A DNA stretch of 64,000 nucleotides from Candidatus Omnitrophota bacterium (lineage in GTDB: Bacteria > Omnitrophota > Gorgyraeia > Duberdicusellales > Duberdicusellaceae): the NCBI GenBank assembly GCA_016932855.1, contig JAFGCB010000014.1, forward strand, positions 6,496 through 70,495, read 5' to 3'. Below, in pieces: positions 18,700 to 57,936 of the stretch (the stretch's first letter is position 1; every line of letters begins with the position of its first letter). The notes under the pieces are model-generated. The model worked only from the letters and a program-made list of their open reading frames with translations, made no database searches and had not been told where the DNA came from. The translations under genes were made by a program, and so were the position numbers.

Positions 18700-19590
18700 T
18701 TATAGGACTTTACTCATGATAATTCGCTCTTTTTTAGTCTTTCTATCGCCTCTTCTTAACTCCCGGTCAATCGCAGGAACAGATACTTGATTAAACCCGA
18801 GCTTGCTGTATAAATTAACTGCCGGCTTATTATCCTTAAATACAAAGAGCCTCACTTGAGTAGCCCCTTCTTCTTTTAAAAACCTTAAGGCCGTATACGT
18901 AAGCTTGTAAGCAATGCCTAAACGCCGGTAAAACCAATGCACCTGCGTAGAATAAATCCACCATCCCCTATAAGCCTCATTATCGGTGAAATTATTAAGG
19001 TTTAAACCGGCAATAACCTTATCCTCTCTCTTGGCCAGGATACGTTTATCCAAACCATCTAAAGATTCAATCTCATAGTTTACTTTTACCCTAATAAGCG
19101 TTCTTACTATATAACGATAAACTTTAAAACCCTGCACCCAACGTAGCAACATACCAGCTATTTTACGCATAGCTTCTACAGCAAAATTAATCCTGGCGTA
19201 GAATAAAGCTATGGCCTTAAACAAGGGGCTATCGGGAAATATTCTCCTGTCCCCTCTTTGGATAAACTTAACCTTACCTAAAAGATCACCTGAAGCGACT
19301 TCTTCAGGCTCTATATTAGAATCCCCCCTGGCTATTAAAATAAGCTTTCCTTCGCGAAGACGCCTCTTTATAAACCTGTGGGCGGCCAGGCGTTTATCCG
19401 GAGTCTTATAAAATATCACCTCGCCCAAACGTATTTTATCGGCCGCGGCCCTTTCAACAGTAAGGATATCCCCGTCCAAGATAGACGGACACATACTTTT
19501 CCCCCTGGCCTTAAAGCGAAGAAGGCCTGCCTTATTAATAATATCCCGGCTTAACTTAAGAAATTCTATTTTGTCCAGCTTCACGGGCAA
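18700..19590 (-). CDS. Fusion protein: S24/S26 (LexA/signal-peptidase-like) serine peptidase domain + GNAT acetyltransferase domain
   Basis: N-terminal RGKSMCPSILDGDILTV (Ser of the Ser/Lys dyad) ... HRFIKRR ... GDLLGKV. C-terminal GATQVRLFVFKDNKPAVNLYSKLGFNQV (GNAT motif A/B). Confidence 0.45.
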   Translation of the reverse strand: MPVKLDKIEFLKLSRDIINKAGLLRFKARGKSMCPSILDGDILTVERAAADKIRLGEVIFYKTPDKRLAAHRFIKRRLREGKLILIARGDSNIEPEEVASGDLLGKVKFIQRGDRRIFPDSPLFKAIALFYARINFAVEAMRKIAGMLLRWVQGFKVYRYIVRTLIRVKVNYEIESLDGLDKRILAKREDKVIAGLNLNNFTDNEAYRGWWIYSTQVHWFYRRLGIAYKLTYTALRFLKEEGATQVRLFVFKDNKPAVNLYSKLGFNQVSVPAIDRELRRGDRKTKKERIIMSKVL

Positions 19591-20432
19591 CTATCTATAA
19601 AATCTAAAGAGCTTTGATCGGGAAGAAAACCGAAATCATGGCAGGAAACAGCGCCGGCTAAGCAGCCACAAAAATCAAGAGTAAAATCCGTTCCTTGCTT
19701 ATCCCAAAAAGGAGGAAAAGAGCAGACAAAAAGTCGCGAAACAGCTTCAATCTCTTTTAAGGCTTTAAGGCTATTTTCAGCGGCGTGTCTTAAGAAAAAT
19801 ATTTTCTCTAAAGGAACCTTACCGGAAGAACAAGCCTTTACATCTCCATACCAGGGCGTTCCGTACATCCAGAATCCCTGCTTGTCTTTACGGACAATAA
19901 TCCTATCGTCATTTAAGATATCCACCCCTTCTTTATCCTTCCATAACTTAGCGATGGTACTTTTGCCGGCTCCAGAGCTACCAACAAACAAAAAACCCTT
20001 ATTTTTATAACTGACCCCGCAGGAATGAAGAATTATACCCTTTCCCTTGGAAAGCAGATTTATCATAAGTATTTCCCCTAAAGGATATTCCAAAGGGAAA
20101 TTATAGCCGTCATTACTGTCCCGGTCATCCAGGTAAATACTGCCGGAAGTAAAGACCTTATCAAAAACAGCCGTAGCCGAAGTAGTCCTTAATATCCGCA
20201 AATCACCCTGCTTTGATATGCTCCATGTCCCGGAGACATCAAAAAAAGCCTCCTCTTGAATCTGATTATCATAAAGCCTTTCAATAATCTTAAGATTTAT
20301 ATCAGCTTTTTCTTTAGTTACGAACCGACGATAGGAATTATTATACAAACGGCAGGAATTAATACTTGCCGGATTAAGAGATATTACTATATCTCCCAAA
20401 GAAAATCTTAATTCATTTCCTGCCTTAGCCAT
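19581..20432 (-). CDS. HPr kinase-related P-loop kinase (HprK C-terminal domain-like)
   Basis: Walker A FLFVGSSGAGKSTIAKLW in an HprK-like context. 283 aa. Overlaps the downstream gene by 10 nt. Confidence 0.5.
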   Translation of the reverse strand: MAKAGNELRFSLGDIVISLNPASINSCRLYNNSYRRFVTKEKADINLKIIERLYDNQIQEEAFFDVSGTWSISKQGDLRILRTTSATAVFDKVFTSGSIYLDDRDSNDGYNFPLEYPLGEILMINLLSKGKGIILHSCGVSYKNKGFLFVGSSGAGKSTIAKLWKDKEGVDILNDDRIIVRKDKQGFWMYGTPWYGDVKACSSGKVPLEKIFFLRHAAENSLKALKEIEAVSRLFVCSFPPFWDKQGTDFTLDFCGCLAGAVSCHDFGFLPDQSSLDFIDSCP

Positions 20433-20488
20433 ATTATCTACCCAAAAAGAAATAGTTTCATTCCGAAGGTAAGAAATTTATACGGCTG

Positions 20489-20653
20489 TTAACTTCCGCT
20501 GTCCTTAGAGCACTTACCAGGATTAACAGGCGGACAAGACTCGCTTTTTCCGTTTGAGCCGTCGCTTCTTTTGCATCCTGTAAGCAAGGCTTCCTGGGGA
20601 ACTAAGTCAACTTGGCTTAGTGCCGGTTTTTGATAGGTTTTTTTTGTCATCAT
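20489..20653 (-). CDS. Unannotated 54-aa peptide; candidate RiPP precursor: MMTKKTYQKPALSQVDLVPQEALLTGCKRSDGSNGKSESCPPVNPGKCSKDSGS
   Basis: Hand-translated. Start ATGATG preceded by AAGGAGG 10 nt upstream. Lies between the rSAM/SPASM and kinase genes on the same strand. Core rich in Cys/Ser/Gly/Pro. Missing from the ORF track because it is under 60 aa. Confidence 0.5.
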   Translation of the reverse strand: MMTKKTYQKPALSQVDLVPQEALLTGCKRSDGSNGKSESCPPVNPGKCSKDSGS

Positions 20654-20697
20654 ACTCTGTATACCTCCTTAAAAATAATCCGCTTTTAAGCGTTCTT

Positions 20698-21777
20698 TTA
20701 ATAAACTGCCGGCTTAATCAAGCCTAAAGCCTCAGCCCTTAGATGAGCGACCTTGCAAAGATACTCGACCGGCTTTTGGGGATCGGAATTTTCAAGCTGG
20801 CCCCAGCCCGGACACTGTCCGCAAAGAGAGATTAGTTCACAGCTGTTACATCTGTAATCACTGCTGCACTTCCGGGATAAGACTTCAGGGACTCTATCAT
20901 ACCAGACTTCCTTAAAGCTGTTTTTTAGAAGACTAAAACTCTGGGCCCGGGACATCTCGCAGACAGTCAAATACCCGTAAGGGTCGATATTAAAGGAATT
21001 TACTCCCGCTCCGCAGATATAGAGATTATCCGAGCCTGTGCCACCCCAGAACTGCTCACAGAACTGTCTTAACTCCTGGGCCCTCTTGTAAGAAGCAAAA
21101 TCAAGCTCAACTACCTGACTGGGCAGAACTCTAAACTTACAGGGCTCTTTACAGCCGTCAAGTCTGGGGTTAATTCCTGTATCTAATCTAAAACTTAAGC
21201 CTAAATCTTGAGCAAACTTCTCCATGCTCCGGACTTCATCAAAGTTTAAATTCATAACCATAGTCTTTAAGCTAAGGGGTAATTTACGCTCTCTTAAAAT
21301 ATCAATTCCTTTAAGGCACTCTTTGAAAGAGCCGGGCACTCCGGTAATCTTCTCGTGGGTTTCCTTAGATGCACCGTAGATACTTACTTCTATGCGGAAA
21401 GGCGGATACTCTCTTAAATAATCGGCGATATAATCGGTAACCAGCGTAGCGTTAGTAAACAAAGTAATAATCATGCCTTTATTTTTTGCATAGCCATAGA
21501 TATCCAAAAAGTCTTTCCTTAAAAGCGGCTCTCCGCCGGTTATAAGAAGCCAAAGACAGCCGGAAGCGGCAATCTCGTCCAGAAGACGGCTAATCTCCTT
21601 AAAGCTTAGCTCCTTTTCTTTAATATCATGAAGGCAGTAGCAATGCACACAACCCATGTTGCAGCGGAAAGTAAGCTCTATGGTCCCGCAAATAGGAGTA
21701 CGGTCCTTCTTTACTTTGGAATGAATCTTTTGGCTAAACTTACTGTAAGGTATTTTTACCAGGGGACGGCAATCCAT
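20698..21777 (-). CDS. Radical SAM / SPASM-domain peptide-modifying enzyme
   Basis: CNMGCVHC (Cx3Cx2C). Cys-rich C-terminus CGAGVNS...CNSCELISLCGQCPGW is typical of SPASM auxiliary clusters. Confidence 0.8.
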   Translation of the reverse strand: MDCRPLVKIPYSKFSQKIHSKVKKDRTPICGTIELTFRCNMGCVHCYCLHDIKEKELSFKEISRLLDEIAASGCLWLLITGGEPLLRKDFLDIYGYAKNKGMIITLFTNATLVTDYIADYLREYPPFRIEVSIYGASKETHEKITGVPGSFKECLKGIDILRERKLPLSLKTMVMNLNFDEVRSMEKFAQDLGLSFRLDTGINPRLDGCKEPCKFRVLPSQVVELDFASYKRAQELRQFCEQFWGGTGSDNLYICGAGVNSFNIDPYGYLTVCEMSRAQSFSLLKNSFKEVWYDRVPEVLSRKCSSDYRCNSCELISLCGQCPGWGQLENSDPQKPVEYLCKVAHLRAEALGLIKPAVY

Positions 21778-21779
21778 CT

Positions 21780-22073
21780 TTAAACTTCCTCTATCCCTTT
21801 TATCCGTAATAAATTATCTAAGAATTCCTTAAGGTCCTGCTCTGCTTCTTTAACAGATACGTCAAATTCCTCAGCAAGCTTGTCCCTGATGCGGGTTAAG
21901 CTTATTTCCGGGTCAATTAATTCCCAAATCCTGGAAGCGACTTCATTTAAGGTATAAATACTCTGCAGATCACCTACGTTATTACTAATAGGCACCAAGA
22001 TAGACTCCTCAGCGATTTTTCTAAAGACAATATCGGGATTTTTCTTATAGCGTTTATCCAAGACTTGCATATT
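21780..22073 (-). CDS. PqqD-family peptide chaperone (RiPP recognition element)
   Basis: IYTLNEVASRIWELIDPEISLTRIRDKLAEEFDVSVKEAEQDLKEFLDNLL matches the PqqD fold consensus. The ORF-track start at 22124 overlaps the upstream gene; the internal Met at 22073 is more likely. Confidence 0.7.
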   Translation of the reverse strand, partial: NMQVLDKRYKKNPDIVFRKIAEESILVPISNNVGDLQSIYTLNEVASRIWELIDPEISLTRIRDKLAEEFDVSVKEAEQDLKEFLDNLLRIKGIEEV

Positions 22074-22077
22074 TTTA

Positions 22078-22950
22078 TTACCAGACTTTAGCCCCGCGGG
22101 AAAAGCCTTGGGCTTTGGTAGCATTATCTAAGATAGGTCCGAATAAGGTGCTTAGAAAATAATTTACATCAGCGATAAACTTCTTAGGGACAAATACAAT
22201 ATTTCCGGATGCCAAAGTAATGTTCTGCTGACTTGAAGGCTTATGGATAGCTTTATTTAAATCAAACCTTTCGGCCTTGGGATTATCAAAGCCGTCTTTT
22301 ACCACGATAACGCTTGAAGCAACCGAATGACTGGTAAAGCCTCCGGCTAAAGCTATAACTTCCAAAAGATTAGTTGCCCCGGAAATAGAATATACACCGG
22401 GATAAACCACTTCACCCAAGACGATTACTTTACCTAAGCCTATCTTGCGCAAAGAGATAGAAACATCAGGAAAACGAATGTATTCCTTTAACTTTGCGGT
22501 TATCTTTTCATCAAGCTGACCCACGCTAAGACCTGAAGCCTGGACTTCGTCTACTAAGGGTAAGGAAATCTTTCCGTCAGGCCTTACAATTGTCTCCTGA
22601 TCAAGGTCAGGGTTCTCCCAAACCGATATAAAAAGGGTATCTCCCTGACCGATAATATAGGCTCCGGATTGAGCATCGGCAGCAGTAACTGGCTGAGCTT
22701 CCTCTAATCCTAAAGGCTCTTCAACCCTGGCGACACGGGAAAGCCTTTCTTTATCTTTAAGAAATTGAAGGGATCTTTTGAACTCTCTTTCCGCTTCCTT
22801 ATAAAGACCGTGCTCGTAATAAATCGTCCCCACCCGGTAATGCTGGCGGGCCTTCTGCTCAAGGTCCTGGGAATAAAGAAGGCTACCGGCTGCTAAAAAT
22901 AAAATAAAACTTACGCTTAAAAAAGATAATCTCATGCCATTTGCAGACAT
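22078..22950 (-). CDS. wza: Polysaccharide export protein, Wza/OPX family (Poly_export + SLBB)
   Basis: Signal peptide. YIIGQGDTLFISVWENPDL..VRPDGKISLPLVDEVQASGLSVGQLDEKI is the Poly_export signature. SLBB-like C-terminus. Confidence 0.7.
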   Translation of the reverse strand: MSANGMRLSFLSVSFILFLAAGSLLYSQDLEQKARQHYRVGTIYYEHGLYKEAEREFKRSLQFLKDKERLSRVARVEEPLGLEEAQPVTAADAQSGAYIIGQGDTLFISVWENPDLDQETIVRPDGKISLPLVDEVQASGLSVGQLDEKITAKLKEYIRFPDVSISLRKIGLGKVIVLGEVVYPGVYSISGATNLLEVIALAGGFTSHSVASSVIVVKDGFDNPKAERFDLNKAIHKPSSQQNITLASGNIVFVPKKFIADVNYFLSTLFGPILDNATKAQGFSRGAKVW

Positions 22951-26325: not shown

Positions 26326-26856
26326 TTATTGTTGCGGCTCTTGGGCCAAGATCTTCCTCTTGGAAAGACTCTTAAAAGAATAATCTTCGGAACCCTCGGG
26401 CTTGGGAAAGCTTATTACGCCGCCCATGCTACTTAAATCCGGGGATATTTCGCCTCGAAAGAAGGTAACCTGGTTTTCGCTTGACTGCATAGTCTCCCAA
26501 ACCACTTGTCCGTCATCCTTAAGAGATAAGGTGTAATTGGAAGGGCTAAACCCCTCTGCGACAAGCTTCTTTGAAGAAACCTGATAACCGCTAAAGACAA
26601 GGACATCTTTACTGGTATTTCCTTTCTGGGGACCGGAAGAAACCCTCATTTCAACATCCCACTCGGTATCGTTTAAAGCTTCCTGCTTCTGAGAAATCAC
26701 TTCTCTTTTTCTCTGCATCTCCAATTCCGCCTGAGATAAAGCTTTTTCTTTCCCGGCATCTTTGGCCTTGGAAGGGACTCTTCCGGAAGAGCCGTTACAG
26801 CCATATCCTACAAATACACAGATAACAAACACCGCGATAGAAATAAACCGCGTCAT
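26326..26856 (-). CDS. Putative lipoprotein, unknown function
   Basis: Signal peptide MTRFISIAVFVICVFVGYGC. The ORF-track TTG start at 26871 is less likely than the ATG at 26856 with GGGGGAAGG upstream. Confidence 0.4.
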   Translation of the reverse strand: MTRFISIAVFVICVFVGYGCNGSSGRVPSKAKDAGKEKALSQAELEMQRKREVISQKQEALNDTEWDVEMRVSSGPQKGNTSKDVLVFSGYQVSSKKLVAEGFSPSNYTLSLKDDGQVVWETMQSSENQVTFFRGEISPDLSSMGGVISFPKPEGSEDYSFKSLSKRKILAQEPQQ

Positions 26857-27040
26857 CCTTCCCCCTTTCAATGACCCCGCGCCTTTGTTTTATCCACGAT
26901 GAATGGCTCAAAGGTGCGGGGGGAATTGACCTCGAACCCCGGCTTCGCCGGGATAAGAGATCTTATTTAGATTGATCCGTTTTCAACAAGTCCTGCTTCC
27001 AGCGGGACGAAATATCTTATCTAGATTAATCAACCGCAGT

Positions 27041-27985
27041 TCACTTAATCGGTGTTTCAGCTTCCCAGGCCTGCCAAGTAAGAATGTATTTTTTTACCCA
27101 ATCCACATCCTTATCCTCTTTGCTGGCAAGCCTTAAATATTTACGGAAATAATCAATCGCCTTATTTCTATCTACCAGATATTCAGCGTAAATATAGCCT
27201 AAATTAAAATAGGCGTAGACATCTTCGGGATTAAGCCTAAGAGCCTTTTCAAACTCGGCAATCGCTCGTTTATATTGACCCTCACCGGTGTAAAAAACGC
27301 CCAGATTATAATGCATAAGGGCTGTCTCTTTGATGAGGACTTTGTTTTCCCGGGCGATCTCGGCAAATTCCTTAGGAAGCTTGCTCAACTTCTTCTCTAA
27401 TTCTTTATTAGCGCTAAGGGCTTGGTTATACTTTTTCTTAAGCTCTGAATGCTGCCTTCGGTAAAGCTTGCTCTCGGCTTTTACCGATATCTTATCGCCC
27501 TCTAACTTTTCAATTTCTTTCTCCAGACCGCTGATTTTGCGCTCCAGAAGCAGGTTATCCTTTTTAGCCTGGTCAAGCTCCCTCTTGATATCATCTACTA
27601 TTTTATATTCAACTTCCATTTTTTCAATATAATTCTTAAGTACCTCCATCTGGCTTTTAAGCTCTGAATTTTGGGCCGCAAGTTCGTCTATATACTCCTT
27701 TAAATCGGTTATTTCGGCATTCAGAGCAATCTTGTCTTGCTCAAGCTGATTATTCTTGCCCTGGACAATCCTGGCTTCATCCTGCATTTGGCGTATCTCA
27801 GTTTTATATTGAAGAAGGTTTTTGCTCTGGGCTAAAATATTGTCCCGGTCTTTAAGAAGACGCTCGTACTCCTTCTTTAACTTCTCCAGCTCAACTCTTA
27901 AGGTTGCTGCGTCTTGAGCATAGACAAGGCTAGACCCCAAAATACAGGCCACTATGAAAACTGATAAATATATGCTGTTTCTCAT
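27041..27985 (-). CDS. Signal/TM + coiled-coil + C-terminal TPR protein (secretin partner; MshN-like?)
   Basis: N-terminal hydrophobic segment, about 180 aa coiled coil, TPR repeats LGVFYTGEGQYKRAIAEFEKALRLNPEDVYAYFNLGYIY. Paralog of 29889-31019. Confidence 0.55.
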   Translation of the reverse strand: MRNSIYLSVFIVACILGSSLVYAQDAATLRVELEKLKKEYERLLKDRDNILAQSKNLLQYKTEIRQMQDEARIVQGKNNQLEQDKIALNAEITDLKEYIDELAAQNSELKSQMEVLKNYIEKMEVEYKIVDDIKRELDQAKKDNLLLERKISGLEKEIEKLEGDKISVKAESKLYRRQHSELKKKYNQALSANKELEKKLSKLPKEFAEIARENKVLIKETALMHYNLGVFYTGEGQYKRAIAEFEKALRLNPEDVYAYFNLGYIYAEYLVDRNKAIDYFRKYLRLASKEDKDVDWVKKYILTWQAWEAETPIK

Positions 27986-27991
27986 AAGTAA

Positions 27992-29779
27992 TTAAAATTC
28001 CTGAACAGGTTTTATGCCGGCTTTCTCCCCGTCCTTTTGAATATCAAGATAAGGCTGGTAAGTCTTAAAAGTCCCCAAGGCTTCTTGTTCATCAAAAGGT
28101 TTATAATCCTGATATTCCTCATCGATTTTATCCCCGAAATCCCTGCGATTGCCGGTAAACAGCTCGTCTCCTTCTATAATATGCGGAGTAACCATAACCA
28201 GAAGCTCTGTACGTTTCTTGGTCTTGCTTGAAGAACTAAAAATATTACCTAAAATAGGGATCCTACCCAGAAAAGGAACTTCTTCTCTGTTGTCGGTATC
28301 GCTTTCTTCTTTCAAGCCTCCGATAATGACGCTTGCTCCGTCCTTTACCATAACAGTAGTCTCGGTAGTGGAAGTATTAAGAATGGGTATCTTATTATCC
28401 TGAGAAGTAGTAAGATAGGAAGTAACGCTACTTATTTCGGGCTTAAGATTCAAAGTAACAAAACCTTCGTCATTAATCGTGGGGGTTATGAAAAGCTGGA
28501 TACCCACATCTAAAAATGTCACCTCTTCCGCAACCGTGGTAGTGGAAGCGGTCTGAGTAGTAGTATTGGTTATATAGGCCTGCCTTTCTCCGATATGAAT
28601 TCTTGCTTCCCGATTATTGATAACCGCTATCTTGGGAGTAGCCACAATCTTGACATCGCCTATAGTCCTTAAATACTTAAATACGACGTCAAAATCATGC
28701 TTTCCCACAATACCTACGTGCATGTTCTCGGCACCGGTAGACTTTGTTGCTGAATCATAATCAGTAGTGGTGCCGCTAAAAGGATAGCTGCCTACATAAT
28801 CCACCGGCTCTATAGACGTTCCGTCGGGTGCAAGACCTCCTTTTAAGACTGTCTGGCGTGAACGCCAGGGGTCGCTATCGCCCATAACAGCTGAAAAAGG
28901 ATATGAACCCAGGTACATCATGCCGAATTTCTCACCCACATTAAACAAACCCTCCCATTCAACTCCCTTTTCTAAAGTATCGGAAAGTCTGATCTGAATA
29001 ATCCGCACCTCAACCAAAACCTCTTTTGTCTTACGGTCCAAGCCCTGTATCAAAGTCTCTATATCCTTCATTCTCTCAGGAAGAGTCTGAACAACCACCT
29101 GATTAGTCCTCGTATCAGGCTTTATATAACCTACCTTTTTTAAATCTAATTGGCTCTTAAGCTGCTCTGTAATCTCTTTAGCCTCGGCGTATTTTAAATC
29201 AAACATCTTTATGATCGTATTCTTATTCTCCAAAGAACTGATGGCGTCTTCTATCTCTTTTATTTTCTCAGGGGTGTCCATAACCAGCAAAGTCCCCGAA
29301 TCTTCGTTTACAAAAATTTTTCCGATATCGCTTTTTAAAGCATCACACAAATCGTCGGCATGGGCAGGCACTACGTATTTAAGCCTAAAAATCTTAACTT
29401 TTCTTAAATCAGAAAAAGCTTTTCCGTAAAGATCAGAATACTCTTTCTCGGTCATAATATTCAAGATCTCGCCTCTTCTGTCATAAGCAAGGCCGTTTGA
29501 GCGGAGCATAATATCAAAGACATCCTTAATCGGAGCATCCTCAACCATAAGGGTGATCCTTCCCCTGGCGTTTTTGGTAGGTATGATATTAAGCCCGGCG
29601 GTAGTGGACAAAAATTTAAGAGCATCAGTTATATCGATATCTTTAAAATCGAGAGTTACTCTCTTTCTCATCTTAAACTCAACGCTGTCCTCGGAAAAAG
29701 CTTTTGTTAGGCTTAAGCCCGAAATAATTATAATGATTAAGAGTAAAATTGCAAATTTCCTATTCAAACCTATCTCCAC
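27992..29779 (-). CDS. Secretin (GspD/PilQ/MshL family) outer-membrane channel
   Basis: STN/secretin-N-like FKDIDITDALKFLSTTAGLNIIP. Secretin C-domain VLVEVRIIQI...TPKIAVINNREARIHIG...VMVKDGASVIIGGL...EVPFLGRIPILGNIFS...ELLVMVTPHII. Confidence 0.8.
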   Translation of the reverse strand: MEIGLNRKFAILLLIIIIISGLSLTKAFSEDSVEFKMRKRVTLDFKDIDITDALKFLSTTAGLNIIPTKNARGRITLMVEDAPIKDVFDIMLRSNGLAYDRRGEILNIMTEKEYSDLYGKAFSDLRKVKIFRLKYVVPAHADDLCDALKSDIGKIFVNEDSGTLLVMDTPEKIKEIEDAISSLENKNTIIKMFDLKYAEAKEITEQLKSQLDLKKVGYIKPDTRTNQVVVQTLPERMKDIETLIQGLDRKTKEVLVEVRIIQIRLSDTLEKGVEWEGLFNVGEKFGMMYLGSYPFSAVMGDSDPWRSRQTVLKGGLAPDGTSIEPVDYVGSYPFSGTTTDYDSATKSTGAENMHVGIVGKHDFDVVFKYLRTIGDVKIVATPKIAVINNREARIHIGERQAYITNTTTQTASTTTVAEEVTFLDVGIQLFITPTINDEGFVTLNLKPEISSVTSYLTTSQDNKIPILNTSTTETTVMVKDGASVIIGGLKEESDTDNREEVPFLGRIPILGNIFSSSSKTKKRTELLVMVTPHIIEGDELFTGNRRDFGDKIDEEYQDYKPFDEQEALGTFKTYQPYLDIQKDGEKAGIKPVQEF

Positions 29780-29888
29780 TCAACCCCGTACCTTTGAATT
29801 ATTCATCGCAGATACAGCAAAGGTGCGGGGTAAATCCGGACATAGACTTATGTTCGTCGCTTTGCTCCTCCATAAGTCTCGCCCTCAT

Positions 29889-31019
29889 TTAACTGCCTTC
29901 TATGGCCTCCTGCATAAGAAGATATTTTCTGGCCCGATCCGAATCTTCATCGGAAGGCGTAAGGCCCAAATACTTGCGGAAATGGGCGATCGCCCTGTCT
30001 CTGTCCAAAATATATTCTGAGTATATAACCCCCAAGTTGTAGTGAGCGTCGGAATCATTAGGGTCTACTTTTAGAACTTCCTGAAATTCGCTGATTGCCT
30101 TGCGGTAATCTTCCTTCTGGGTATAAAAAACCCCCAGATTATAATGAAGCACCGCTTTCTCTTTAAGAATCTCCTTATTAAGCCGGTTAAGCTCTGAAAG
30201 CTTTCTGGGAATAGTCTTGGTCTTTGACTGAAGTTCTTTGTTGTCCTTAAGCAGCTGGGTATAATTATCTTCAATACCTTTCCAGCGCTTCATCTGGGCA
30301 TCAAACAAAGCCAAGGTCTTTTCGTACTGCTTCTGGTAATAAGCCGCTTCCTTCCGGGAACTTGCCGCATCCCGCTCGTAATCTTTGCTCTGCCTGGCTA
30401 GATCGTTTTTCTGCTTAGTAACTTCTTTAAGCTTTGCCTGCAAGCTTTCTATCTTCGGGGTAAATTTTTTACTGGCTTTCTCTAAAGAGACGCTTTCTCT
30501 CTGACAGCGGGAAAGCTCCCGCTCCAAAGTGCTGTAGTTTTTCTCAAGTTCAAGATACTCGCGTTTGATATTCGCCGATACCGCTTCCAAATCATAATAC
30601 TTGCTGTCAAAACTGCTTATTTCTTTTTTGTAAGCGCTAAGCTCCTCTTTGGCCATGTTTTTCTCTTCGGTTAAAGCCTCGTTCGCCTGAAAAACAATAT
30701 CAAGCTGTTCTTTAAGTTCAACAACCTCGCCTTCAAGCTCGGCGTACTGACTTTCCAAATCTTTGTAATCCAGCTTAGCTTTATCCAAATCCCCTGCAAG
30801 AGACTCGTTCTCCTGCCCGAGGACTTTCTTTTCCTGTTTTAAAGACGTAAGTTCATCTTTGATTTTTTTATAGTCTTTATTAAGCTGGGTATATTTTTCA
30901 CGCAGAGAAGAAACATCCTTATTAAAGCCGAATAAGAACTTACCTACAAGAGCCAATAGACAGATTAAAAGGACTAAAGAAATGCCGATTTTTATTCCGA
31001 TACTAATCTTTTTAGCCAT
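29889..31019 (-). CDS. TM + coiled-coil + C-terminal TPR protein (paralog of 27041-27985)
   Basis: Same architecture. TPR LHYNLGVFYTQKEDYRKAISEFQEVLKVDPNDSDAHYNLGVIYSEY. Confidence 0.55.
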   Translation of the reverse strand: MAKKISIGIKIGISLVLLICLLALVGKFLFGFNKDVSSLREKYTQLNKDYKKIKDELTSLKQEKKVLGQENESLAGDLDKAKLDYKDLESQYAELEGEVVELKEQLDIVFQANEALTEEKNMAKEELSAYKKEISSFDSKYYDLEAVSANIKREYLELEKNYSTLERELSRCQRESVSLEKASKKFTPKIESLQAKLKEVTKQKNDLARQSKDYERDAASSRKEAAYYQKQYEKTLALFDAQMKRWKGIEDNYTQLLKDNKELQSKTKTIPRKLSELNRLNKEILKEKAVLHYNLGVFYTQKEDYRKAISEFQEVLKVDPNDSDAHYNLGVIYSEYILDRDRAIAHFRKYLGLTPSDEDSDRARKYLLMQEAIEGS

Positions 31020-36517: not shown

Positions 36518-37816
36518 TTAAATCACTGAGTAACCTTTCTTAAACATGTTTTTAGGAAGGTTAAAATAACCAAATATAATACGGGGGTTTTTCTCTCGTA
36601 TACGCTTAATCATCCCATAAACACCTAAAGGATTTAAGTTTTGTCCGGGTATATTCTTTAATAAATAGTCGCTATCTATACAAAGATTGCGCCATTGAAT
36701 CATATCGACGTAGCCTTTGTTTAAAAAATCGGATAGATGGTCTACTTCCTCCTCTGTGTCAGTCACTCCCGGAAAAACCAAAAGATTAACTGCTACAAAA
36801 AGACCGCTTTTCTTGGCTGTCTTTATCGAAGAAATCACTTCCTTTAGCCCGTATCCCTTGGGTCTGAAATAAGCATCATAAAGCGCCGGCTTAAGACTAT
36901 TAAGGCTTATTCGTATGCTGTCTAGACCGGCTTCTTTAAGCTGCTTGATCTTTTCCGGACTATAAGCATTAGTATTTAAATGAATAGTTCCTTTATCGGT
37001 GTTTTTTCGTATACCTAGAATTGCCTCTCTTAATGTTTTAAACTCAAGCAAAGGCTCTCCTTCACAGCCTTGGCCGAAACTTACAATAGGCTCCTTGGCA
37101 TTACGAATGTGAATTAAGGCTACCTCCTCTACTTCTTGAGGGCTGGGCACAAAGGTAATTCTACTATGAGAAGCCACAGGACAGCTTGAGGCCTGAAGGG
37201 ATAAACACCCCAAACAGCGGGCATTACAAGAGGGAGCAACCGGCAAAGGCGCTTCCCAGCGTCCAAAGAAGAAATTCTGGGCAGCTAAACAGTTGTAATT
37301 AAGGGCGCAATTGAATAAATGCCGGATAAGCCTGTTTTTTCGATGCTTTTTTACCATATTCCTTGCTTTTCTCCCTAAAAGAGCTCTATCTTTATAATAA
37401 GAAGGTCTTTGGCGACTGCGACGGTCTATCTTTATTGCCGAAGTTATAAATCTTCCCTGTCTAAATCCCACTGCCGCATAAGCCCAAAGAGGAAGAACGG
37501 TTTTTAAATCTATTTTCCTGGCCGCCGGATGAAGAAGACGGGTAAACCCCGGGATAAGAAAAGCCGATAAAGGATAAACCAGCCGTCCTTTATAGTCCGC
37601 AACCGCTACAGCCTCTCCCTGAACAGGGCTATAGCCGAAACTTATATGGCCGACCATAAAAAAAAGCTTGCTTGCTCTAGGCAGAACAATAAGCTCCTCC
37701 TCTCGCGGCAACCTCATGGCCTTGCCGTCGAAAGCAAGCATCACAAGCTTTGGGTGGACAAAGATATTACCCTTAGAATCAGAAACAACTAATCTCGGTA
37801 AATCACTCATAAGCAA
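36518..37816 (-). CDS. Radical SAM domain protein with about 190-aa N-terminal extension of unknown function
   Basis: CNARCLGC (Cx3Cx2C) at about residue 200. TIM-barrel-like IHLNTN...SIRISLNS. Confidence 0.6.
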   Translation of the reverse strand: MLMSDLPRLVVSDSKGNIFVHPKLVMLAFDGKAMRLPREEELIVLPRASKLFFMVGHISFGYSPVQGEAVAVADYKGRLVYPLSAFLIPGFTRLLHPAARKIDLKTVLPLWAYAAVGFRQGRFITSAIKIDRRSRQRPSYYKDRALLGRKARNMVKKHRKNRLIRHLFNCALNYNCLAAQNFFFGRWEAPLPVAPSCNARCLGCLSLQASSCPVASHSRITFVPSPQEVEEVALIHIRNAKEPIVSFGQGCEGEPLLEFKTLREAILGIRKNTDKGTIHLNTNAYSPEKIKQLKEAGLDSIRISLNSLKPALYDAYFRPKGYGLKEVISSIKTAKKSGLFVAVNLLVFPGVTDTEEEVDHLSDFLNKGYVDMIQWRNLCIDSDYLLKNIPGQNLNPLGVYGMIKRIREKNPRIIFGYFNLPKNMFKKGYSVI

Positions 37817-37922
37817 GATAACGCACTCTTAAGGGATAAACGGGTTAGAAGAAATAGAGGGATAGTTGATCTATCCCCTATATCCCTTACAACCCCTATA
37901 ACCCTTATAACCCCTATTACTG

Positions 37923-43012: not shown

Positions 43013-43137
43013 AATTATTAAAGATTCGCGGTGCGTTTATGATATATAGTCATACTGTAGCCATGCTATTGTCATACATAGTCATACAATTGTTTAACTA
43101 ATGTATGACTTTCTATTATTAAGGTAACCTGTAACGG

Positions 43138-44754: not shown

Positions 44755-44883
44755 AATTAATCTTTTAGATTAAATACAACAACTGGATCCTAGATCCTCG
44801 CTTTAAAACATAAGCACCTAGCACCTGGCACCTATGGTCTTTAAGAGCGCTTATCGAGGATCGAAGAAAAGTCTCAGGTTGTT

Positions 44884-50648: not shown

Positions 50649-51578
50649 CTAAAATTTATTTTTAAGGTAGTCTCGAACTGATATAGCAGCGATTGTGCCT
50701 TCGGCGCAGGCTGTGTCTATCTGGCGGACTTCCTTGGAGCGGATATCTCCGGCCGCAAACACGCCCTCAAGAGAGGTCTTCATGCGCTCATCTGTAACAA
50801 TATAACCGTGTTGGTCCAACTCGATTAGGCCTTTTACGAAATCAGAATTAGGCAGATACCCCGCATATATAAATACCCCCTGAACAGGTATATCTTTTTC
50901 CTTATCAGTCGCTCTGTCTTTTATAATAACAGCCTCGACAATATCTTTTCCCTTTATGACGGTAAGCTTATGATTTAAGAAAAACTTTGCTTTTTCATTC
51001 TTTTGAATTCTTTCCTGCAAAATCTTTTGAGCGGTCATATAGGGCAAAAATTCAATGAAAGTAACGCTTTTGGTATATTTCAAAAGAGCCTCGCCCTCCT
51101 GAAGTCCTGAATTTCCGCATCCGATAACAGAAACGTCCTTGCCTTTAAATAAGGGGCCGTCGCAGGTGGCACAATAGGAAACCCCCTTACCCTTAAAAAC
51201 ATCTTCCCCGGGAATATCAAGCCTTTTGGGAACGCTGCCTGAAGCTACTATCACTGCCCAGGCCTTAAAAACCTCTTGATCGGTCTTTAAAACAAATTCT
51301 TTGTTATTTAAAGAGAGGTTGTTTACTTCCTTAAACTCGGTTATCTCAGCCCCGAAACGGCCTGCCTGCTCCTTGAATCTATCCATAAGCTCCATGCCGC
51401 TTATTCCTTCGGCAAACCCGGGATAATTCTCAACCAAATCAGTGGAAGCCGCAAGACCTCCAGTAAGGTTTTTTTCTAAGACAAGAGTCTTGATTGACTC
51501 CCTGGAAGTATAAATAGCCGCGGTGAGTCCGGCGGCGCCGCCGCCGATAATAATCACATCGTAAATTTTAGTCTCCAT
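50649..51578 (-). CDS. trxB: Thioredoxin-disulfide reductase
   Basis: FAD GxGxxG DVIIIGGGAAGLTAAIY, redox CATCDG, NADPH site, C-terminal GDIR. Confidence 0.85.
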   Translation of the reverse strand: METKIYDVIIIGGGAAGLTAAIYTSRESIKTLVLEKNLTGGLAASTDLVENYPGFAEGISGMELMDRFKEQAGRFGAEITEFKEVNNLSLNNKEFVLKTDQEVFKAWAVIVASGSVPKRLDIPGEDVFKGKGVSYCATCDGPLFKGKDVSVIGCGNSGLQEGEALLKYTKSVTFIEFLPYMTAQKILQERIQKNEKAKFFLNHKLTVIKGKDIVEAVIIKDRATDKEKDIPVQGVFIYAGYLPNSDFVKGLIELDQHGYIVTDERMKTSLEGVFAAGDIRSKEVRQIDTACAEGTIAAISVRDYLKNKF

Positions 51579-51639
51579 AACGATATCTCATTATACTACC
51601 AGCAAATAATCTGGTTAATCGCCAATTCTTTAATGACCA

Positions 51640-51775
51640 ATGACTAATGAAATCCCAAATCCCAATACTACCAAATCCCAAATAAATCCCAAATCCAAAA
51701 TCCAAATATTGGGATTTGGAAATTAGGATTTGTTTGGTAGTATTGGTAGTATTTGACATTGGGATTTGATTTTTT
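51640..51775. repeat. About 130-bp imperfect palindrome built from AAATCCCAAAT-type units
   Basis: Left arm aaatcccaaatcccaatactaccaaatcccaaataaatcccaaatccaaaatccaaatatt is mirrored by gggatttgg...tttggtagtattggtagtatttg...gggatttga. Confidence 0.6.
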
Positions 51776-51867
51776 TATTCGCAATTCGGACTTGGTCATC
51801 AGACATTAAAATGCATATATATTTTGAAATATGAAATTCGTTTATAGTTTGGTGTCTTTAGTCTGAT

Positions 51868-52260
51868 TTAGGACGGCTGGTCTTTGTCAATTTCTTTCTG
51901 CTGTAAATCAGTCAGGAATTCATCCAGATACTTCTCCGCTGCTTCCATGGTTGAGAAATAATTATCGGGCAAAACTTGCACTGCCTCAAAAACCTTCTTT
52001 ATCTGAGGCTGAAGGTTTATTATAGCTAAGGTGCCTTCGTACTCGGCAAGGGCCATCTTGGTTTTAAATATGACGCTTAAGCCCATGCTGCTTATATAGG
52101 TTACACCCTGCATATCAAACATAATTGCCTTTGTTGTTTTAACTAGAATAGGCTTAAGCTGCTCTTCTAAAATAGTATAGGTCTCTGTATCAATAGAGCC
52201 GACAGGCGCAACGGTAAATACCCCTTCTTCCTTCTTGGTCAATGTGACTTTAAGTGGCAT
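51868..52260 (-). CDS. STAS-domain protein (anti-sigma-factor antagonist, SpoIIAA/RsbV-like)
   Basis: 130 aa. DMQGVTYISSMGLSVIF (the phosphorylatable Ser region). Confidence 0.65.
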   Translation of the reverse strand: MPLKVTLTKKEEGVFTVAPVGSIDTETYTILEEQLKPILVKTTKAIMFDMQGVTYISSMGLSVIFKTKMALAEYEGTLAIINLQPQIKKVFEAVQVLPDNYFSTMEAAEKYLDEFLTDLQQKEIDKDQPS

Positions 52261-52334
52261 ATTACGACCTCCGGTCTTAGTATTTTATCTCTTTATGAAA
52301 TTTATTCAAGGGAATTGATTTCCGGCTTCCCGGG

Positions 52335-52727
52335 CTACCGGGGATTAATAATCTCCCAGTATTCAAGCTCGCCGTTAGGATTGAAAAACAGATAGATTTT
52401 CTCGCCTTCAAACCAATCACTCTGGCCTTCTTTATATACCCACTTGTCGCCGTATTCCTTAGAAAAGACTATTACCGGCTTACCGAATAACTTTAAGGCC
52501 CTTTCTTTGGAAATGCCTTTTTCTATCGTATTATCCTCTATGTGTTTTTTGACTCTTAAGAAATTTACGGTTTCCTCATGTAAGGCTCTTTCTTTTAATT
52601 TGTCGCTTTTACCCACCTGCATCAAAGTATTAAGTCCGCTTAATTTTGCGCATCCGCTGAAATAGATAAGGGCTGCCCCGCATAAAACACTGACCTGGAT
52701 TATCCTAAGGGAATTTCTTTTCTTCAT
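52335..52727 (-). CDS. Putative lipoprotein, unknown function
   Basis: Signal peptide + LIYFSGC lipobox. Confidence 0.4.
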   Translation of the reverse strand: MKKRNSLRIIQVSVLCGAALIYFSGCAKLSGLNTLMQVGKSDKLKERALHEETVNFLRVKKHIEDNTIEKGISKERALKLFGKPVIVFSKEYGDKWVYKEGQSDWFEGEKIYLFFNPNGELEYWEIINPR

Positions 52728-52774
52728 GTCTATTTACTTAAGATTATAGCAAATTATCGCCATTGAACCCAGCC

Positions 52775-54739
52775 TTAATTAACGCTGTCGCCGGCGGGCT
52801 TTTCCGCGCCCACTTCAAGTAAAATAAGCGTTATGTCATCATGCTGGCTAAGGCCTTTGGAAAACTGAAAAAGCTTATCCTTAATAATATTTAAAATAAC
52901 CTCTGCGCAAGACCCCCTATTCTCAAACAAAAGCCTCTTGGCCGGCTCAAGCTCAAACTCCGCTCCTTTCTTGTCCCGGGCTTCGGTCAATCCGTCGGTA
53001 TAGAGAAGAAACTTATCCTTATCATTCAGGACCCTTTCAAAAGAGCTGTACTCCAATGATCCCACTACGCCTAAAGGAGGGCCTGAATCCGGCAAAAACT
53101 CAATAACCTCATCAGCCTTGGAATCATAAAAGGCAATAGGAGAATGCCCGGCGCAGGAAGCAGTCATCAGATGACTGTCCATATCTATAATCAGGTAAAG
53201 GGCGGTAACAAACCTGCCTTTAAGAACCCTTGAAAGCTCGGTGTTTAGTTTAGTTAAGACTTCAGCCGGATTATCCAGGTTAGTTGCGAAGACCCGGAAC
53301 AAGGATACTGTTTGGGCCATAATCAAAGAGGCGGGAACGCCCTTGCCGGATACATCACCGATGAAAACTCCCATTTTATTTTCTGACAGAGGCACGACAT
53401 CGTAAAGGTCTCCGGCAACGAATTTAGCCGGCTTAAAAAAACAAGCCAGGTTAAGCCCGGGACATTCTTTTATCTTTTGGGGGAGAAAACTATCCTGGAT
53501 TTTATGGGCGATCTCCAGCTCCTTTTCTATAAGCTCTCTTTTTCTTATCTCCTTAATCACTCTATAAAGGGTCGAACCGGCGTAGGTAAAAACAATAATA
53601 AATAAGGGAAAGAATAAGTCTGTCCATAACCCGCAGAAAATAAAGGCGCTAAAAGATAAAATAAAATAACCTAAGCCCAGCCCCAGGCTTCCTAAAAAAG
53701 ACTTCAGAGGAATAAACTTAAGACAAATAAACAGACATAAAATAAAAATACTAATATTTATAAGAGTATTTAGAAAATCAGGGGCTTCTCTTATAAATTT
53801 CTGGGTAAGAATGCTGTTTAATACGCTTGCCTGAAGGCCGACCATAGGATAGATATTATCCAAAGGCGTGGGCTTAAAATCCGATGTCCCGGAAGCGGTA
53901 AGACCTATAATGCAGATTGCATCTTTAATCTCGGACAAGTCTATGGCGGGTCTTAGGCCCTGCTGGACATCGGTATAAGCTTGAAGAATCGAAAGAAAAG
54001 ATAAATGCTTAAAAGACTTCTCCCAGACATCAGGATAATTCACCAGAAGAGATGCGTTAGAAGATACGGGAAGAGAAAGCTTTTTGTCGATAGTAAGGAT
54101 TCCTTTCTTGAACTCTGCATTATTACTATTCAACCCTAAAAAATCACAAGCTACCTTCAAAGCCAGATGCGGCACTAATCCATCTTTGTATTTTATAAAT
54201 AGGGGGACTTTCCTTCGCTTTCCGTCGGAATCAGGAGGAGAATTTATATGACCCATGCCCTTAGCATAATCAGAAAAATCTTTAAAAACCCCGGCGTCAA
54301 TACTCGCGGCTTCCAAAGGCTTATATCCTCCTGTCTTTGCTCTATTAATCCCGAAAGCTAAAGGAAGATAGACGTTTTCCGCCTTTTGTATAGACCGAGA
54401 AAGATACTCATCATGCAGACTAAGGGCGCCCCGGTCACTGAAAATAATGTCAAAGACTATGCTCTTTGCCTTATATTCCTTTAAAACATCTACCAGGGCT
54501 GCGTGGAATTCACGGGGGATAGGCCAAGTGCCTAATCTTTTCAAGGCATCATCGGATATTTCAATAAGAACTATTTTTGGCGAGACTTTTTGAGACGGCC
54601 GCAGCCTAAACCTTAAATCATAAAAGAGAAGCTCGTAATTATCAAAGGCTCTAAAATAAGAAACACTGAAAATAACTAAAAAACTTATAATAATTATCCA
54701 TGATCCCAAAGAAATATTCTTCAGAGATTTCATCGGCAA
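52775..54739 (-). CDS. CHASE2 sensor domain + PP2C/SpoIIE-type Ser/Thr phosphatase (RsbU-like)
   Basis: CHASE2 LGTWPIPREFHAALVDVL...FDIIFSD; TM segments. PPM domain GDVSGKGVPASLIMAQT. Confidence 0.7.
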   Translation of the reverse strand: MPMKSLKNISLGSWIIIISFLVIFSVSYFRAFDNYELLFYDLRFRLRPSQKVSPKIVLIEISDDALKRLGTWPIPREFHAALVDVLKEYKAKSIVFDIIFSDRGALSLHDEYLSRSIQKAENVYLPLAFGINRAKTGGYKPLEAASIDAGVFKDFSDYAKGMGHINSPPDSDGKRRKVPLFIKYKDGLVPHLALKVACDFLGLNSNNAEFKKGILTIDKKLSLPVSSNASLLVNYPDVWEKSFKHLSFLSILQAYTDVQQGLRPAIDLSEIKDAICIIGLTASGTSDFKPTPLDNIYPMVGLQASVLNSILTQKFIREAPDFLNTLINISIFILCLFICLKFIPLKSFLGSLGLGLGYFILSFSAFIFCGLWTDLFFPLFIIVFTYAGSTLYRVIKEIRKRELIEKELEIAHKIQDSFLPQKIKECPGLNLACFFKPAKFVAGDLYDVVPLSENKMGVFIGDVSGKGVPASLIMAQTVSLFRVFATNLDNPAEVLTKLNTELSRVLKGRFVTALYLIIDMDSHLMTASCAGHSPIAFYDSKADEVIEFLPDSGPPLGVVGSLEYSSFERVLNDKDKFLLYTDGLTEARDKKGAEFELEPAKRLLFENRGSCAEVILNIIKDKLFQFSKGLSQHDDITLILLEVGAEKPAGDSVN

Positions 54740-54800
54740 AAGGCAAGTGTTTCACAAAGAATAAATGAGTCCGGAATCGGCCTTAAGGCCGGGGTTTTGT

Positions 54801-55481
54801 TTATTTTTTTTCTTTTCCTTTATGCAGAATTTTCCAGGGATGCAGCTTTATATCTTGGCTGAACTCCTCGAAATTTCCGGTCGTGGCCTCCAAATTCTCG
54901 ATAATCGCTGTTATCCTGTCCTGATTGGCCTCCACGGTATAATTAAGGTTCTTGGCCAGCTTCTTGACCTCGTCGGTTAAGCTGTTCACGTTTACTATAA
55001 GAGAATCCAGGTTTTCGGATATACCTTCGGCTTCCTCCATCAAAACATCCAAATCCATAGAGGATGTTCCTTCAAGAAGCGACCCGGGTTTTATGAAGGC
55101 TTCTCCTTTACTGGAGGCGATTTGGATGAACTTTTCTCCCATAAGCCCCAGGGTTTTTATGGTAATTTTGGGATCCGCCCAGATTTTTATGCCTTTATTG
55201 ATTAATAATTTTAATTTTACCTGGGTTTGGCCTTCGTTATATGAAACATCTATCTGCTGAACTCTGCCTACTTCAAGGCCGTTTACCATTACCGGAGAAT
55301 TTTTTTGAATACCAGAGACGTCGTCAAAGACAACGTATACATTGTAGCCTTCGTCCCGGACGTGCAGCTTTCCGGTGCTAAGAATCAAATACAAGAAACC
55401 CGCCACGCAGGCAAAAAAGAAAATCCCCACCTTAACCTCATTGCTAAATTTTTTCATGCGACTCTCCTTTAACGACGACAC
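54801..55481 (-). CDS. mlaD: MCE-domain protein, MlaD-like
   Basis: N-terminal TM. MCE fold YNVYVVFDDVSGIQKNSPVMVNGLEVGRVQQIDV. Confidence 0.7.
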   Translation of the reverse strand: MSSLKESRMKKFSNEVKVGIFFFACVAGFLYLILSTGKLHVRDEGYNVYVVFDDVSGIQKNSPVMVNGLEVGRVQQIDVSYNEGQTQVKLKLLINKGIKIWADPKITIKTLGLMGEKFIQIASSKGEAFIKPGSLLEGTSSMDLDVLMEEAEGISENLDSLIVNVNSLTDEVKKLAKNLNYTVEANQDRITAIIENLEATTGNFEEFSQDIKLHPWKILHKGKEKK

Positions 55482-55716
55482 AATTTATGGAGCCCCGAAT
55501 CTTAGGAACGACATAAATTGTACGTCGGAGTTCCCCGCCTCATTAATAATATTATTCTTAAGCGGGGTCCCGCTAAATATTAGAAAATATTTGGGAGCGG
55601 GAAAACCCAACACCTTTATTTTATTCCTGTAAACACCCCAGGGGTATAGGGGTGAAATTCGGCCAACCTGCTTGCGTTAGGCAACTTCGCTGCCTAACGT
55701 AAGCGCAGGCCTCATT

Positions 55717-56526
55717 TCATTTCCCGAATTCTTCAAAAAGATCAACGTCCTCGGTAAAAAAATCTATCGGCCCTTCGGGAAGACCGTTTATAAACTGTTT
55801 TATATATTCATTATCGGAATTCTTTATCTCCTCGGGCGTGCCTACTTTAACAATGCTTCCCTGATGAACCATGGCCACTCTATCGGCGATTCTGAAAACG
55901 CTCTGCATATCGTGAGTCACTACCACCGAGGTAATAAGCAGCTTAGCGCTTAAGTCTTTGATTAGTTTATCGATTACTCCTCCTACAACAGGATCAAGCC
56001 CTGAAGTAGGCTCATCATAAAAGACGACATAAGGGTCCAAAGCAATGGCCCGGGCAAGGCCTACGCGCTTGCGCATGCCTCCGGAAATCTTGGAAGGGTA
56101 ATAAGATTCAAAACCCCGCAAGCCCACTAAAGAAAGCTTCATTTTAACAATTATCCTTATGATATTCTCATCCAGCTTAGTATGTTCTCTAAGAGGCAAA
56201 GCCACGTTTTCGTCCACCGTCAAGGAATCCAAAAGAGCTGAATATTGAAAAAGCATTCCGAAAGACTTTCTTATCTGATCTAATTCTTCGATGTCTATGC
56301 GGCTTATATCTTTTCCTCTAATAAATATATTTCCTTCATCGGGTTTGATAATCCCGGTCATAAGTCTTAAAAGGGTGCTTTTACCCGAACCCGAACAGCC
56401 CATGATGACAAAAGTTTCTCCGCTGTAAATATCAAAATTTACGTTATCGATAATCTTTCGACCGTCGAAAAACTTGCTCACACCTTTTAAAGATATTACT
56501 TTTTCCTTGGAAATATTTTGGCTCAT
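55717..56526 (-). CDS. mlaF: ABC transporter ATP-binding protein, MlaF-like
   Basis: Walker A GCSGSGKSTLL, signature ISGGMRKRV, Walker B VFYDEPTSGLDP. The start is moved to the internal Met to avoid a 47-nt overlap. Confidence 0.8.
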   Translation of the reverse strand: MSQNISKEKVISLKGVSKFFDGRKIIDNVNFDIYSGETFVIMGCSGSGKSTLLRLMTGIIKPDEGNIFIRGKDISRIDIEELDQIRKSFGMLFQYSALLDSLTVDENVALPLREHTKLDENIIRIIVKMKLSLVGLRGFESYYPSKISGGMRKRVGLARAIALDPYVVFYDEPTSGLDPVVGGVIDKLIKDLSAKLLITSVVVTHDMQSVFRIADRVAMVHQGSIVKVGTPEEIKNSDNEYIKQFINGLPEGPIDFFTEDVDLFEEFGK

Positions 56527-56527
56527 T

Positions 56528-57316: not shown

Positions 57317-57317
57317 A

Positions 57318-57650: not shown

Positions 57651-57936
57651 GGCCTTCCTCCTTCAATGACCCCGAACCCTGAAAGGGTGAGGGGGAATTC
57701 CCCGCCTCATTAACAGTATTATTTTCGGCGGGGTCCCGCCTTACATAAATACGCCATATTTAGGTGGCGGGAGATCTCGGACCCCGACGAAGTCAGGGTG
57801 AAAGATCTTATTTAGGTTAATTTCATTCTACATAGAGCGTTTAATGAGACCATCCCCTTTATTAAGAGAGGTGATCGCTTTTTTTTCAGACTTTAATATA
57901 TTTAATAAATTAAATACCAATGATAATGAGGCGGGC

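Follow-up and report, generated by a model that had tools for sequence, protein, structure and literature searches.

Four GC-rich intergenic regions in a 64-kb stretch of DNA from a member of the Omnitrophota (the window; ~40% GC, with nearly all genes on the minus strand) are probably lineage-specific mosaics of interspersed repeats of the BIME/BOX/REP kind, inserted in operon junctions and co-transcribed as mRNA hairpins. Sequence comparisons establish the existence of three hairpin modules, their combination in mosaics, the tightness of the same junctions in related genomes and the restriction of the modules to this lineage.

The four regions, all of them on the minus strand, are each flanked by co-oriented minus-strand genes, and the operons of the window are compact outside of them. 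Region A (26857–27040) is a 184-nt spacer leading from a TPR/coiled-coil gene (27041–27985) to a lipoprotein-like gene (26326–26856), and region B (29766–29888) is a 123-nt spacer between a gene for a 376-aa coiled-coil/TPR protein (29889–31019) and a secretin gene that starts at ~29764. Region C (55459–55716), of ~258–259 nt, separates mlaF (55717–56574) from mlaD (54801–55457) within an operon, whereas region D (57651–57936), of 286 nt, extends from an RsbW-like HATPase_c_2 gene (57937–58344) to a STAS gene (57318–57650) that overlaps mlaE. All of them sit directly upstream of ribosome-binding sites. A previous reading of the same DNA, made from the sequence only (the sequence-only reading), had placed GC-rich stem-loops in four intergenic regions, and these are indeed found there: the GC content of regions A–D is 0.43–0.49, vs. 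~0.40 for the whole window and 0.23–0.41 for the other intergenic regions, and each folds as a chain of independent stem-loops that are more stable than expected from dinucleotide shuffles (z of -2.85, -3.67, -6.64, and -5.14 for A–D, respectively). The four regions occur at 100% identity in two contigs from the Logan assembly of run SRR13394437, indicating that they are not an artifact of one assembly. The same reading described them as leader elements upstream of minus-strand genes, but region C lies inside the mlaEF-mlaD operon and is thus not an operon leader. Around the Mla transporter genes there is a partner-switching module (51868–58344), whose members are a CHASE2-SpoIIE phosphatase (52775–54739), the RsbW-like kinase (57937–58344) and two STAS proteins (57318–57650 and 51868–52260).

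Local alignment and repeat finding resolved three modules, designated M1, M2, and M3, which are combined differently in each region and which, as in BIME and BOX elements, vary in number, order and orientation. Read from 5′ to 3′ on the minus strand, region A is composed of M1, M1, the sequence AATTCC, M2, and TCATTGAA plus a Shine-Dalgarno sequence; region B contains a unique hairpin (X) and then M2, which is inverted; region C contains a hairpin (Y), a smaller hairpin, M3 and a further hairpin (W); and region D starts with a unique AT-rich part of ~115 nt, followed by M1, M3, a degenerate M2 and a tail. Within the 64-kb window, the similarity between the hairpins from A and B spans 48 nt (81% identity, E = 1.8e-7), that between the blocks from C and D spans 80 nt (77.5%, E = 7e-10) and that between A and D spans 49 nt (73%, E = 1.9e-4). 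The sharing of blocks noted in the sequence-only reading is therefore far beyond chance, with E values reaching 7e-10, although none of the blocks is present in all four. Likewise, the motifs that it quoted (ttcaatgaccccg, ccccgcctcatta... and caaaggtgcgggg paired with ccccgYRcctttg) are essentially confined to regions A–D, whereas "gggggaattccc" is exact in D only. Its proposal that A and D are collinear over ~150 contiguous nt had to be abandoned in favor of a collinearity block by block, involving M1, AATTCCCC, an M2-like hairpin, and CGGGGTCATTGAA plus the Shine-Dalgarno sequence. None of the ~17 other intergenic regions of the window contains a module.

Module M1 (~49 nt, three copies) consists of an AT-rich 17-nt head, ATYAAYCTARATAAGAT, and, 3′ of it, a GC-rich hairpin in two tiers. 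Conservation across the three copies is highest in this head, which contains an imperfect palindrome (ATCT-N5-AGAT). Two copies are in tandem in region A, their starts 54 nt apart: A1 (26982–27030, minus strand; found by repeat finding, pattern match and a covariance model, 54.6 bits), with the head ATTAATCTAGATAAGAT preceding a GC-rich hairpin, and A2 (26928–26976, minus strand; 70.8 bits), with ATCAATCTAAATAAGAT followed by the hairpin GATCTC..CCCGGCGAAGCCGGG..GAGGTC (MFE of -22.0 kcal/mol). The third copy is in region D (57773–57821, minus strand; repeat finding, pattern match and covariance model, 66.6 bits). A 20-position core pattern derived from the A/D block gave exactly three matches, with none expected, and the covariance model, run with the filters off, found only these three copies in the window. 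The hairpin is kept although the copies are only 61–73% identical, and four out of 14 pairs changed on both sides; as far as three sequences go, this shows that the palindrome is maintained, be it at the RNA or at the DNA level. Palindromic repeats are expected to keep their hairpin, and the retention of the M1 stem at this level of identity fits with this.

Module M2, of 47 nt, forms a hairpin in which 13-nt arms (CCCCGCACCTTTG / CAAAGGYRCGGGG) enclose a loop of 21 nt; it is present in A and B and, in a short degenerate form, in D. The copy in A (26875–26921, minus strand) has arms CCCCGCACCTTTG / CAAAGGCGCGGGG, and that in B (29784–29830, plus strand) has arms as in the A copy and a loop that matches that of A only when reverse-complemented: 14 out of 21 positions are then identical, vs. 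eight in direct orientation, and 19 of 100000 shuffles reach 14. With respect to the genes, M2 is thus found in either orientation, a feature difficult to explain for a strand-specific RNA motif. The degenerate hairpin in D (57669–57697, minus strand) has the form CCCC..CACCCTTTCAGGGTT..GGGG and is preceded by AATT, as in A.

Module M3 (~80 nt) comprises two adjacent hairpins with alternating CCCGCY/GGCGGG units, and a conserved second loop containing AATAATAnTnTTAATGA. It is found in C (55527–55602, minus strand; MFE of -29.4 kcal/mol), as CCCGCT...AGCGGG, an A, and CCCCGCT...GGCGGGG with the second loop AATAATATTATTAATGA, and in D (57694–57772, minus strand; MFE of -32.0 kcal/mol). An isolated and inverted M3 piece, TAATGAGGCGGG (57923–57936, plus strand), lies at the 5′ end of D, adjoining the HATPase stop codon. 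Regions A and D also have in common the 23 nt preceding the start codon (CGGGGTCATTGAA plus Shine-Dalgarno): the tail in A (26857–26879, minus strand), CGGGGTCATTGAAAGGGGGAAGG, comprises the 3′ end of a hairpin and the ribosome-binding site, directly before the ATG, and 21 out of 23 aligned positions are identical, with one gap, in 57651–57672. The remaining hairpins X and Y are single-copy. Hairpin X (29838–29884, minus strand) begins 4 nt downstream of the preceding stop codon, with an MFE of -19.8 kcal/mol in sense and -10.0 kcal/mol in antisense, and hairpin Y (55661–55712, minus strand; 52 nt, MFE of -29.4 kcal/mol) directly follows the mlaF stop codon. The tips of two of the hairpins, at 26940–26950 (M1 copy A2) and 55683–55692 (hairpin Y), contain GCGAAGC and GCGAAGT, respectively, and GCGAAGC-like strings recur in the repeats described below from loci L028, L029, and L043; GCGAAGC is an unusually stable DNA mini-hairpin.

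The same junctions are mostly compact in related genomes. We retrieved 80 loci containing relatives of MlaE, mostly from Omnitrophota MAGs or from MAGs automatically labeled as "uncultured Planctomycetia/Planctomycetales", the best of which encodes a protein 80% identical to that from the window. The gene order [large protein]-HATPase-STAS-MlaE-MlaF-MlaD is conserved among the relatives, and the HATPase-STAS-MlaEFD part of the partner-switching arrangement is conserved in most of these 80 loci. In most of them the HATPase-STAS gap is of ~1–5 nt, vs. 286 nt in the window, and the MlaF-MlaD gap is of ~10–20 nt, vs. ~258–259 nt in the window; the tight junctions were confirmed with ORF maps of the two closest relatives and with the junction sequences. 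The nearest secretin in a collection of 15 billion proteins was only 65–66% identical, indicating that the source lineage is isolated. The secretin cluster is syntenic in loci L092–L096: in L093–L096 the coiled-coil and secretin genes overlap by 4 nt, vs. the 123 nt of region B, and the distance from the gene for a 331-aa protein to the lipoprotein-like gene is 12 nt, vs. the 184 nt of region A, while L092 is equally compact over the same stretch (4-nt overlap, 14-nt gap, and 23-nt overlap). Sensitive blastn did not find any of the modules in 1.09 Mb of related loci, and the M1 covariance model did not find any match in 1.13 Mb. Together, the tight junctions and the absence of modules in the relatives indicate that regions A–D are lineage-specific fillings, with the same sites empty in other genomes as occurs with BIME- and BOX-type elements. 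Judging from these comparisons, the filled junctions are ancestrally tight and, in part, translationally coupled.

A minority of the relatives have expanded mla junctions, which hold unrelated, strongly folding palindromic sequences. These include L009 (9521–9664), L024 (8019–8168), L028 (9768–9943), L029 (10787–10956 and 11821–12070), L038 (11664–11792), L043 (532–651), and L050 (4852–4952). For nine of the 12 expansions that were compared, further copies are present elsewhere in the retrieved loci, whereas we did not find any further match there for those from L012, L028, and L046. Additional copies in the same locus were found for L009 (four matches at three sites), L010, L038 (110 nt, 84.5% identity), L050 (96%), and L073; copies in other genomes connect L009 with L024, and L029 and L043 with each other and with L050, L057, L076, and L080. 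Loci L029 and L043 have "GTCATTGCGAGCGAA...GCGAAGCAATC" in common, and a motif in L028 is similar by eye, without a blast match. The presence of unrelated repeats in the junctions of the relatives supports reading regions A–D in the same way, and, as far as can be judged from these loci, it seems common in Omnitrophota for lineage-specific families of repeats to invade operon junctions independently.

Several observations count against the repeat reading. The part of the source genome that could be reached amounts to ~71 kb (the window plus L082 and L083), with 2–3 copies per module, and all of the known copies are in two operons located ~26 kb apart; the further 7.4 kb of the same genome in L082 and L083 do not contain any module. 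The best-matching pairs are within the same operon (M2 from A and B; M3 from C and D), which could be due to local duplication or to an operon-specific function. A Pfam search of 50 of the larger predicted proteins of the window, encoded up to position 58345, did not reveal any transposase or RAYT domain, and the elements do not have defined termini: repeat finding and blastn did not show terminal inverted repeats bracketing A, B, or C, the only inverted pair in D is the 12-nt TAATGAGGCGGG, with one copy internal, and no target-site duplication was recognizable at A–D. In other collections, only chance-like matches were obtained. The M1 core pattern had eight metagenome-wide matches, all of them chance-like (no hairpin, unrelated flanks and GC content of 0.32–0.57), and the copies from the window were not among them, indicating that this collection does not include the source genome; the M3 and M2 patterns gave only chance matches, in coding-like contexts, in viral contigs.

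The first alternative is that the modules are lineage-specific cis-regulatory RNAs, located in a 5′-UTR or between cistrons and recognized by a common RNA-binding protein or sRNA, that co-regulate the secretin and STAS-MlaEFD clusters, which we deem unlikely. In its favor, the four regions are immediately 5′ of ribosome-binding sites, the end of a hairpin plus CGGGGTCATTGAA adjoining the Shine-Dalgarno sequence is common to A and D, there are compensatory changes in the M1 stem and the modules are missing from the other intergenic regions. All the copies of M1 and M3 are also in the sense orientation with respect to the genes, and B, C, and D are 6–7 kcal/mol more stable on the sense strand, with more G-U pairs; these two features, which count against the repeat reading, are compatible with selection at the RNA level. 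However, the sense strand is skewed towards G, which confounds the folding advantage, and the asymmetry between strands is mixed: the sense strand gives the more stable fold for M1 (two out of three copies), M3 and hairpin X, and the antisense strand for M2. Moreover, the orientation of M2 differs between A and B, the four regions lack a common block, three copies of M1 are too few for a covariation test and nothing is conserved at orthologous positions in ~85 relatives.

Comparison with known RNA families points in the same direction. The sequence-only reading proposed an Rfam scan as a check, and at the gathering score there were no matches in the whole window. At E values of up to 5 one scan was empty and another gave four chance-level matches (E = 1.9–4.5), with only one of them inside a region (DUF3800-XI, 57691–57712, 14.9 bits vs. 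a gathering score of 37.8); a scan for tRNA and tmRNA genes in the window was likewise negative. A conserved cis-regulatory RNA of a curated family was thus discarded, as there is no Rfam match and most relatives lack a spacer at the orthologous sites. The four alternating CCCGCC/GGCGGG segments of M3 could suggest an attenuator, pairing as 1:2/3:4 or as 2:3, but this was also rejected: there is no U-tract after the 3:4 hairpin, and neither a leader peptide nor a start codon after an internal GAGG. Small ORFs across the modules were discarded because the frames are broken by stops and no gene is called there in the Logan annotation. Of the three options offered by the sequence-only reading, these results favor small repeat elements over a conserved regulatory leader, given that one of the elements is, in addition, intercistronic, and over a promoter cassette, discussed below.

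Alternatively, the regions might be non-mobile, local junk generated by slippage, or by duplication plus gene conversion between neighboring sites, with the hairpins as a by-product and with neither a function nor a family of copies across the genome. The low copy number in the available 71 kb, the location of the closest pairs 2–3 kb apart in the same operon and the tandem duplication of M1 in A agree with this explanation. It is nevertheless rather improbable, since M1 and the tail are common to loci separated by ~30.8 kb, M2 is inverted between sites, the hairpin structure is kept despite 27–39% divergence and the analogous fillings in relatives are mostly multi-copy repeat families.

Both operons are envelope-related, and a shared regulatory role is conceivable. 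There is a slim chance that the modules, rather than being selfish repeats, act as a lineage-specific "uncoupling cassette" or post-transcriptional regulon that was recruited into envelope operons (secretin/pilotin-like and STAS-MlaEFD). Were this true, the units, some of them with the hairpin-plus-ribosome-binding-site end CGGGGTCATTGAAGGAGG, would set the stoichiometry of the cistrons or respond to a common RNA-binding factor.

The last possibility, that the modules are portable promoter or operator cassettes acting as internal promoters, with the M1 head ATYAAYCTARATAAGAT being a site for a transcription factor or a sigma factor, is very improbable. Promoters are known to arise from Correia-type repeats, no part of M1 is better conserved in the three copies than the 17-nt head, which contains TAAGAT, similar to a -10 hexamer, and two heads are 54 nt apart in A. 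Conversely, B and C do not have M1, there is no acceptable -35 hexamer 16–18 nt from TAAGAT in any copy, as read from the sequence, and a scan for sigma-70-type promoters gave no match inside A–D, which is a weak negative given that the Omnitrophota consensus may differ. An IHF site in the M1 head was also discarded, because neither strand conforms to the WATCAANNNNTTR consensus. Intrinsic terminators were rejected as well: the scan did not reveal T-tracts after the module hairpins, and its only internal match, a weak one at 57769–57752, is the inner stem of M3.

We therefore favor the reading of A–D as mosaic interspersed repeats, for which the following sequence of events can be proposed. 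The modules would have spread at the DNA level, by means of a trans-acting transposase or by recombination. Their location in spacers between co-oriented genes, together with the lack of promoter and terminator signals, indicates that they are probably transcribed as part of polycistronic mRNAs, where they would form stem-loops of around -10 to -32 kcal/mol each, situated immediately 3′ of the stop codon of one gene and immediately 5′ of the ribosome-binding site of the next. Insertion of such hairpins would break an ancestral translational coupling, and the hairpins could stop exonucleases or serve as sites of processing, shifting the relative stability, translation and expression of the flanking cistrons, an effect of the kind deduced for pneumococcal repeats (Croucher et al., PMC3049150); an effect of the elements on expression could hence be exerted at the RNA level.

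Other parts of the window also contain repeated sequences. A short-period array of TAGGGGTTATAAGGGTTATAGGGGTTGTAAGGGATATAGGGGATAG (37817–37922, minus strand), unrelated to the modules, is located upstream of a radical-SAM gene (36518–37816). A long imperfect palindrome (51579–51867), with GGGATTT/AAATCCC and TACTACCAA units and 29-nt arms that are 83% complementary according to repeat finding, lies downstream of the second STAS gene (51868–52260) and upstream of a pyridine-nucleotide oxidoreductase gene (50649–51578), and resembles the short-period palindromic fillings of L009, L024, and L038. In spacers of a trehalose gene cluster there are several (G)TATGAC(T/A) units (43013–43137) and three copies of AGGTGCC/AGGTGCT (44755–44883). 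Upstream of the partner-switching and mla genes, the gene for a 1219-aa protein (58452–62111) has internal repeats with a period of 189 nt and its multiples, as detected by repeat finding, and probably encodes a coiled-coil repeat protein. Lastly, a RiPP-like cluster (19581–22124, corresponding to 15862–18405 in L110) includes genes for a PqqD-like protein and a radical-SAM enzyme, a small ORF of 54 aa called in the 20433–20697 spacer, and a gene for a further protein, which the Logan annotation matches to PF27840 (ScmC).

Most work on small interspersed palindromic repeats concerns Proteobacteria and Firmicutes, and in the literature searched we did not find any account of them for Omnitrophota, which is a phylum known largely from metagenomes. 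In the window, the repeats would have separated genes of conserved envelope operons that used to overlap and to be coupled in translation, and different Omnitrophota lineages appear to have filled the same mla junctions independently with unrelated repeat families. For annotation, this implies that such spacers should not be called riboswitches or promoters; for the assembly of MAGs, that contigs may be broken by repeats; and for the evolution of operons, that this locus is a natural experiment on the tolerance to insertions.

Regions A–D are not a new kind of system, although their sequences are unrelated to described repeat families. As with REP, BIME, and REPIN elements, the modules are short, imperfect, hairpin-forming palindromes in intergenic spacers between co-oriented genes, and they form mosaics of palindromic units and other short motifs in alternating orientations; for instance, M3 is made of four alternating CCCGCC/GGCGGG units and M2 of two inverted 13-mers separated by a 21-nt spacer. 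Co-transcribed hairpins of the REP type stabilize the upstream mRNA and modulate the translation of the downstream gene. In contrast to those families, with which they do not share sequence similarity, the modules are longer (47–80 nt), M1 has a conserved, single-stranded and AT-rich head, and the copies seen in ~71 kb are 2–3 per module, REPs and REPINs having tens to hundreds per genome. REPINs are mobilized by a RAYT (a Y1/HUH transposase), whose gene is usually flanked by the repeats; no RAYT gene was seen among the 50 larger window proteins examined with Pfam, encoded up to position 58345.

The small insertions of the MITE type, such as the Correia elements of Neisseria and ERIC, resemble A–D in being non-coding, of ~100–300 nt, intergenic or intercistronic, and able to form long mRNA hairpins. 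They differ in that A–D are not bracketed by terminal inverted repeats or by a recognizable target-site duplication, and in that their content is a mosaic rather than a single unit. A parallel in organization is provided by the pneumococcal BOX, RUP, and SPRITE repeats, which are lineage-restricted, highly structured and likely to affect co-transcribed genes (Croucher et al., PMC3049150). With these, the elements of the window share a modular architecture with a variable number of modules (boxA-boxB(n)-boxC in BOX), an extensive secondary structure, co-transcription, which is here deduced from gene context, restriction to a lineage and the lack of an encoded transposase. BOX elements belong to a different phylum and have an unrelated sequence; their ends are defined by modules A and C, and a genome contains over 100 of them. 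Our comparison with BOX and with the palindromic units of REP-type elements would thus be one of ways of working only, homology in sequence not being expected across phyla.
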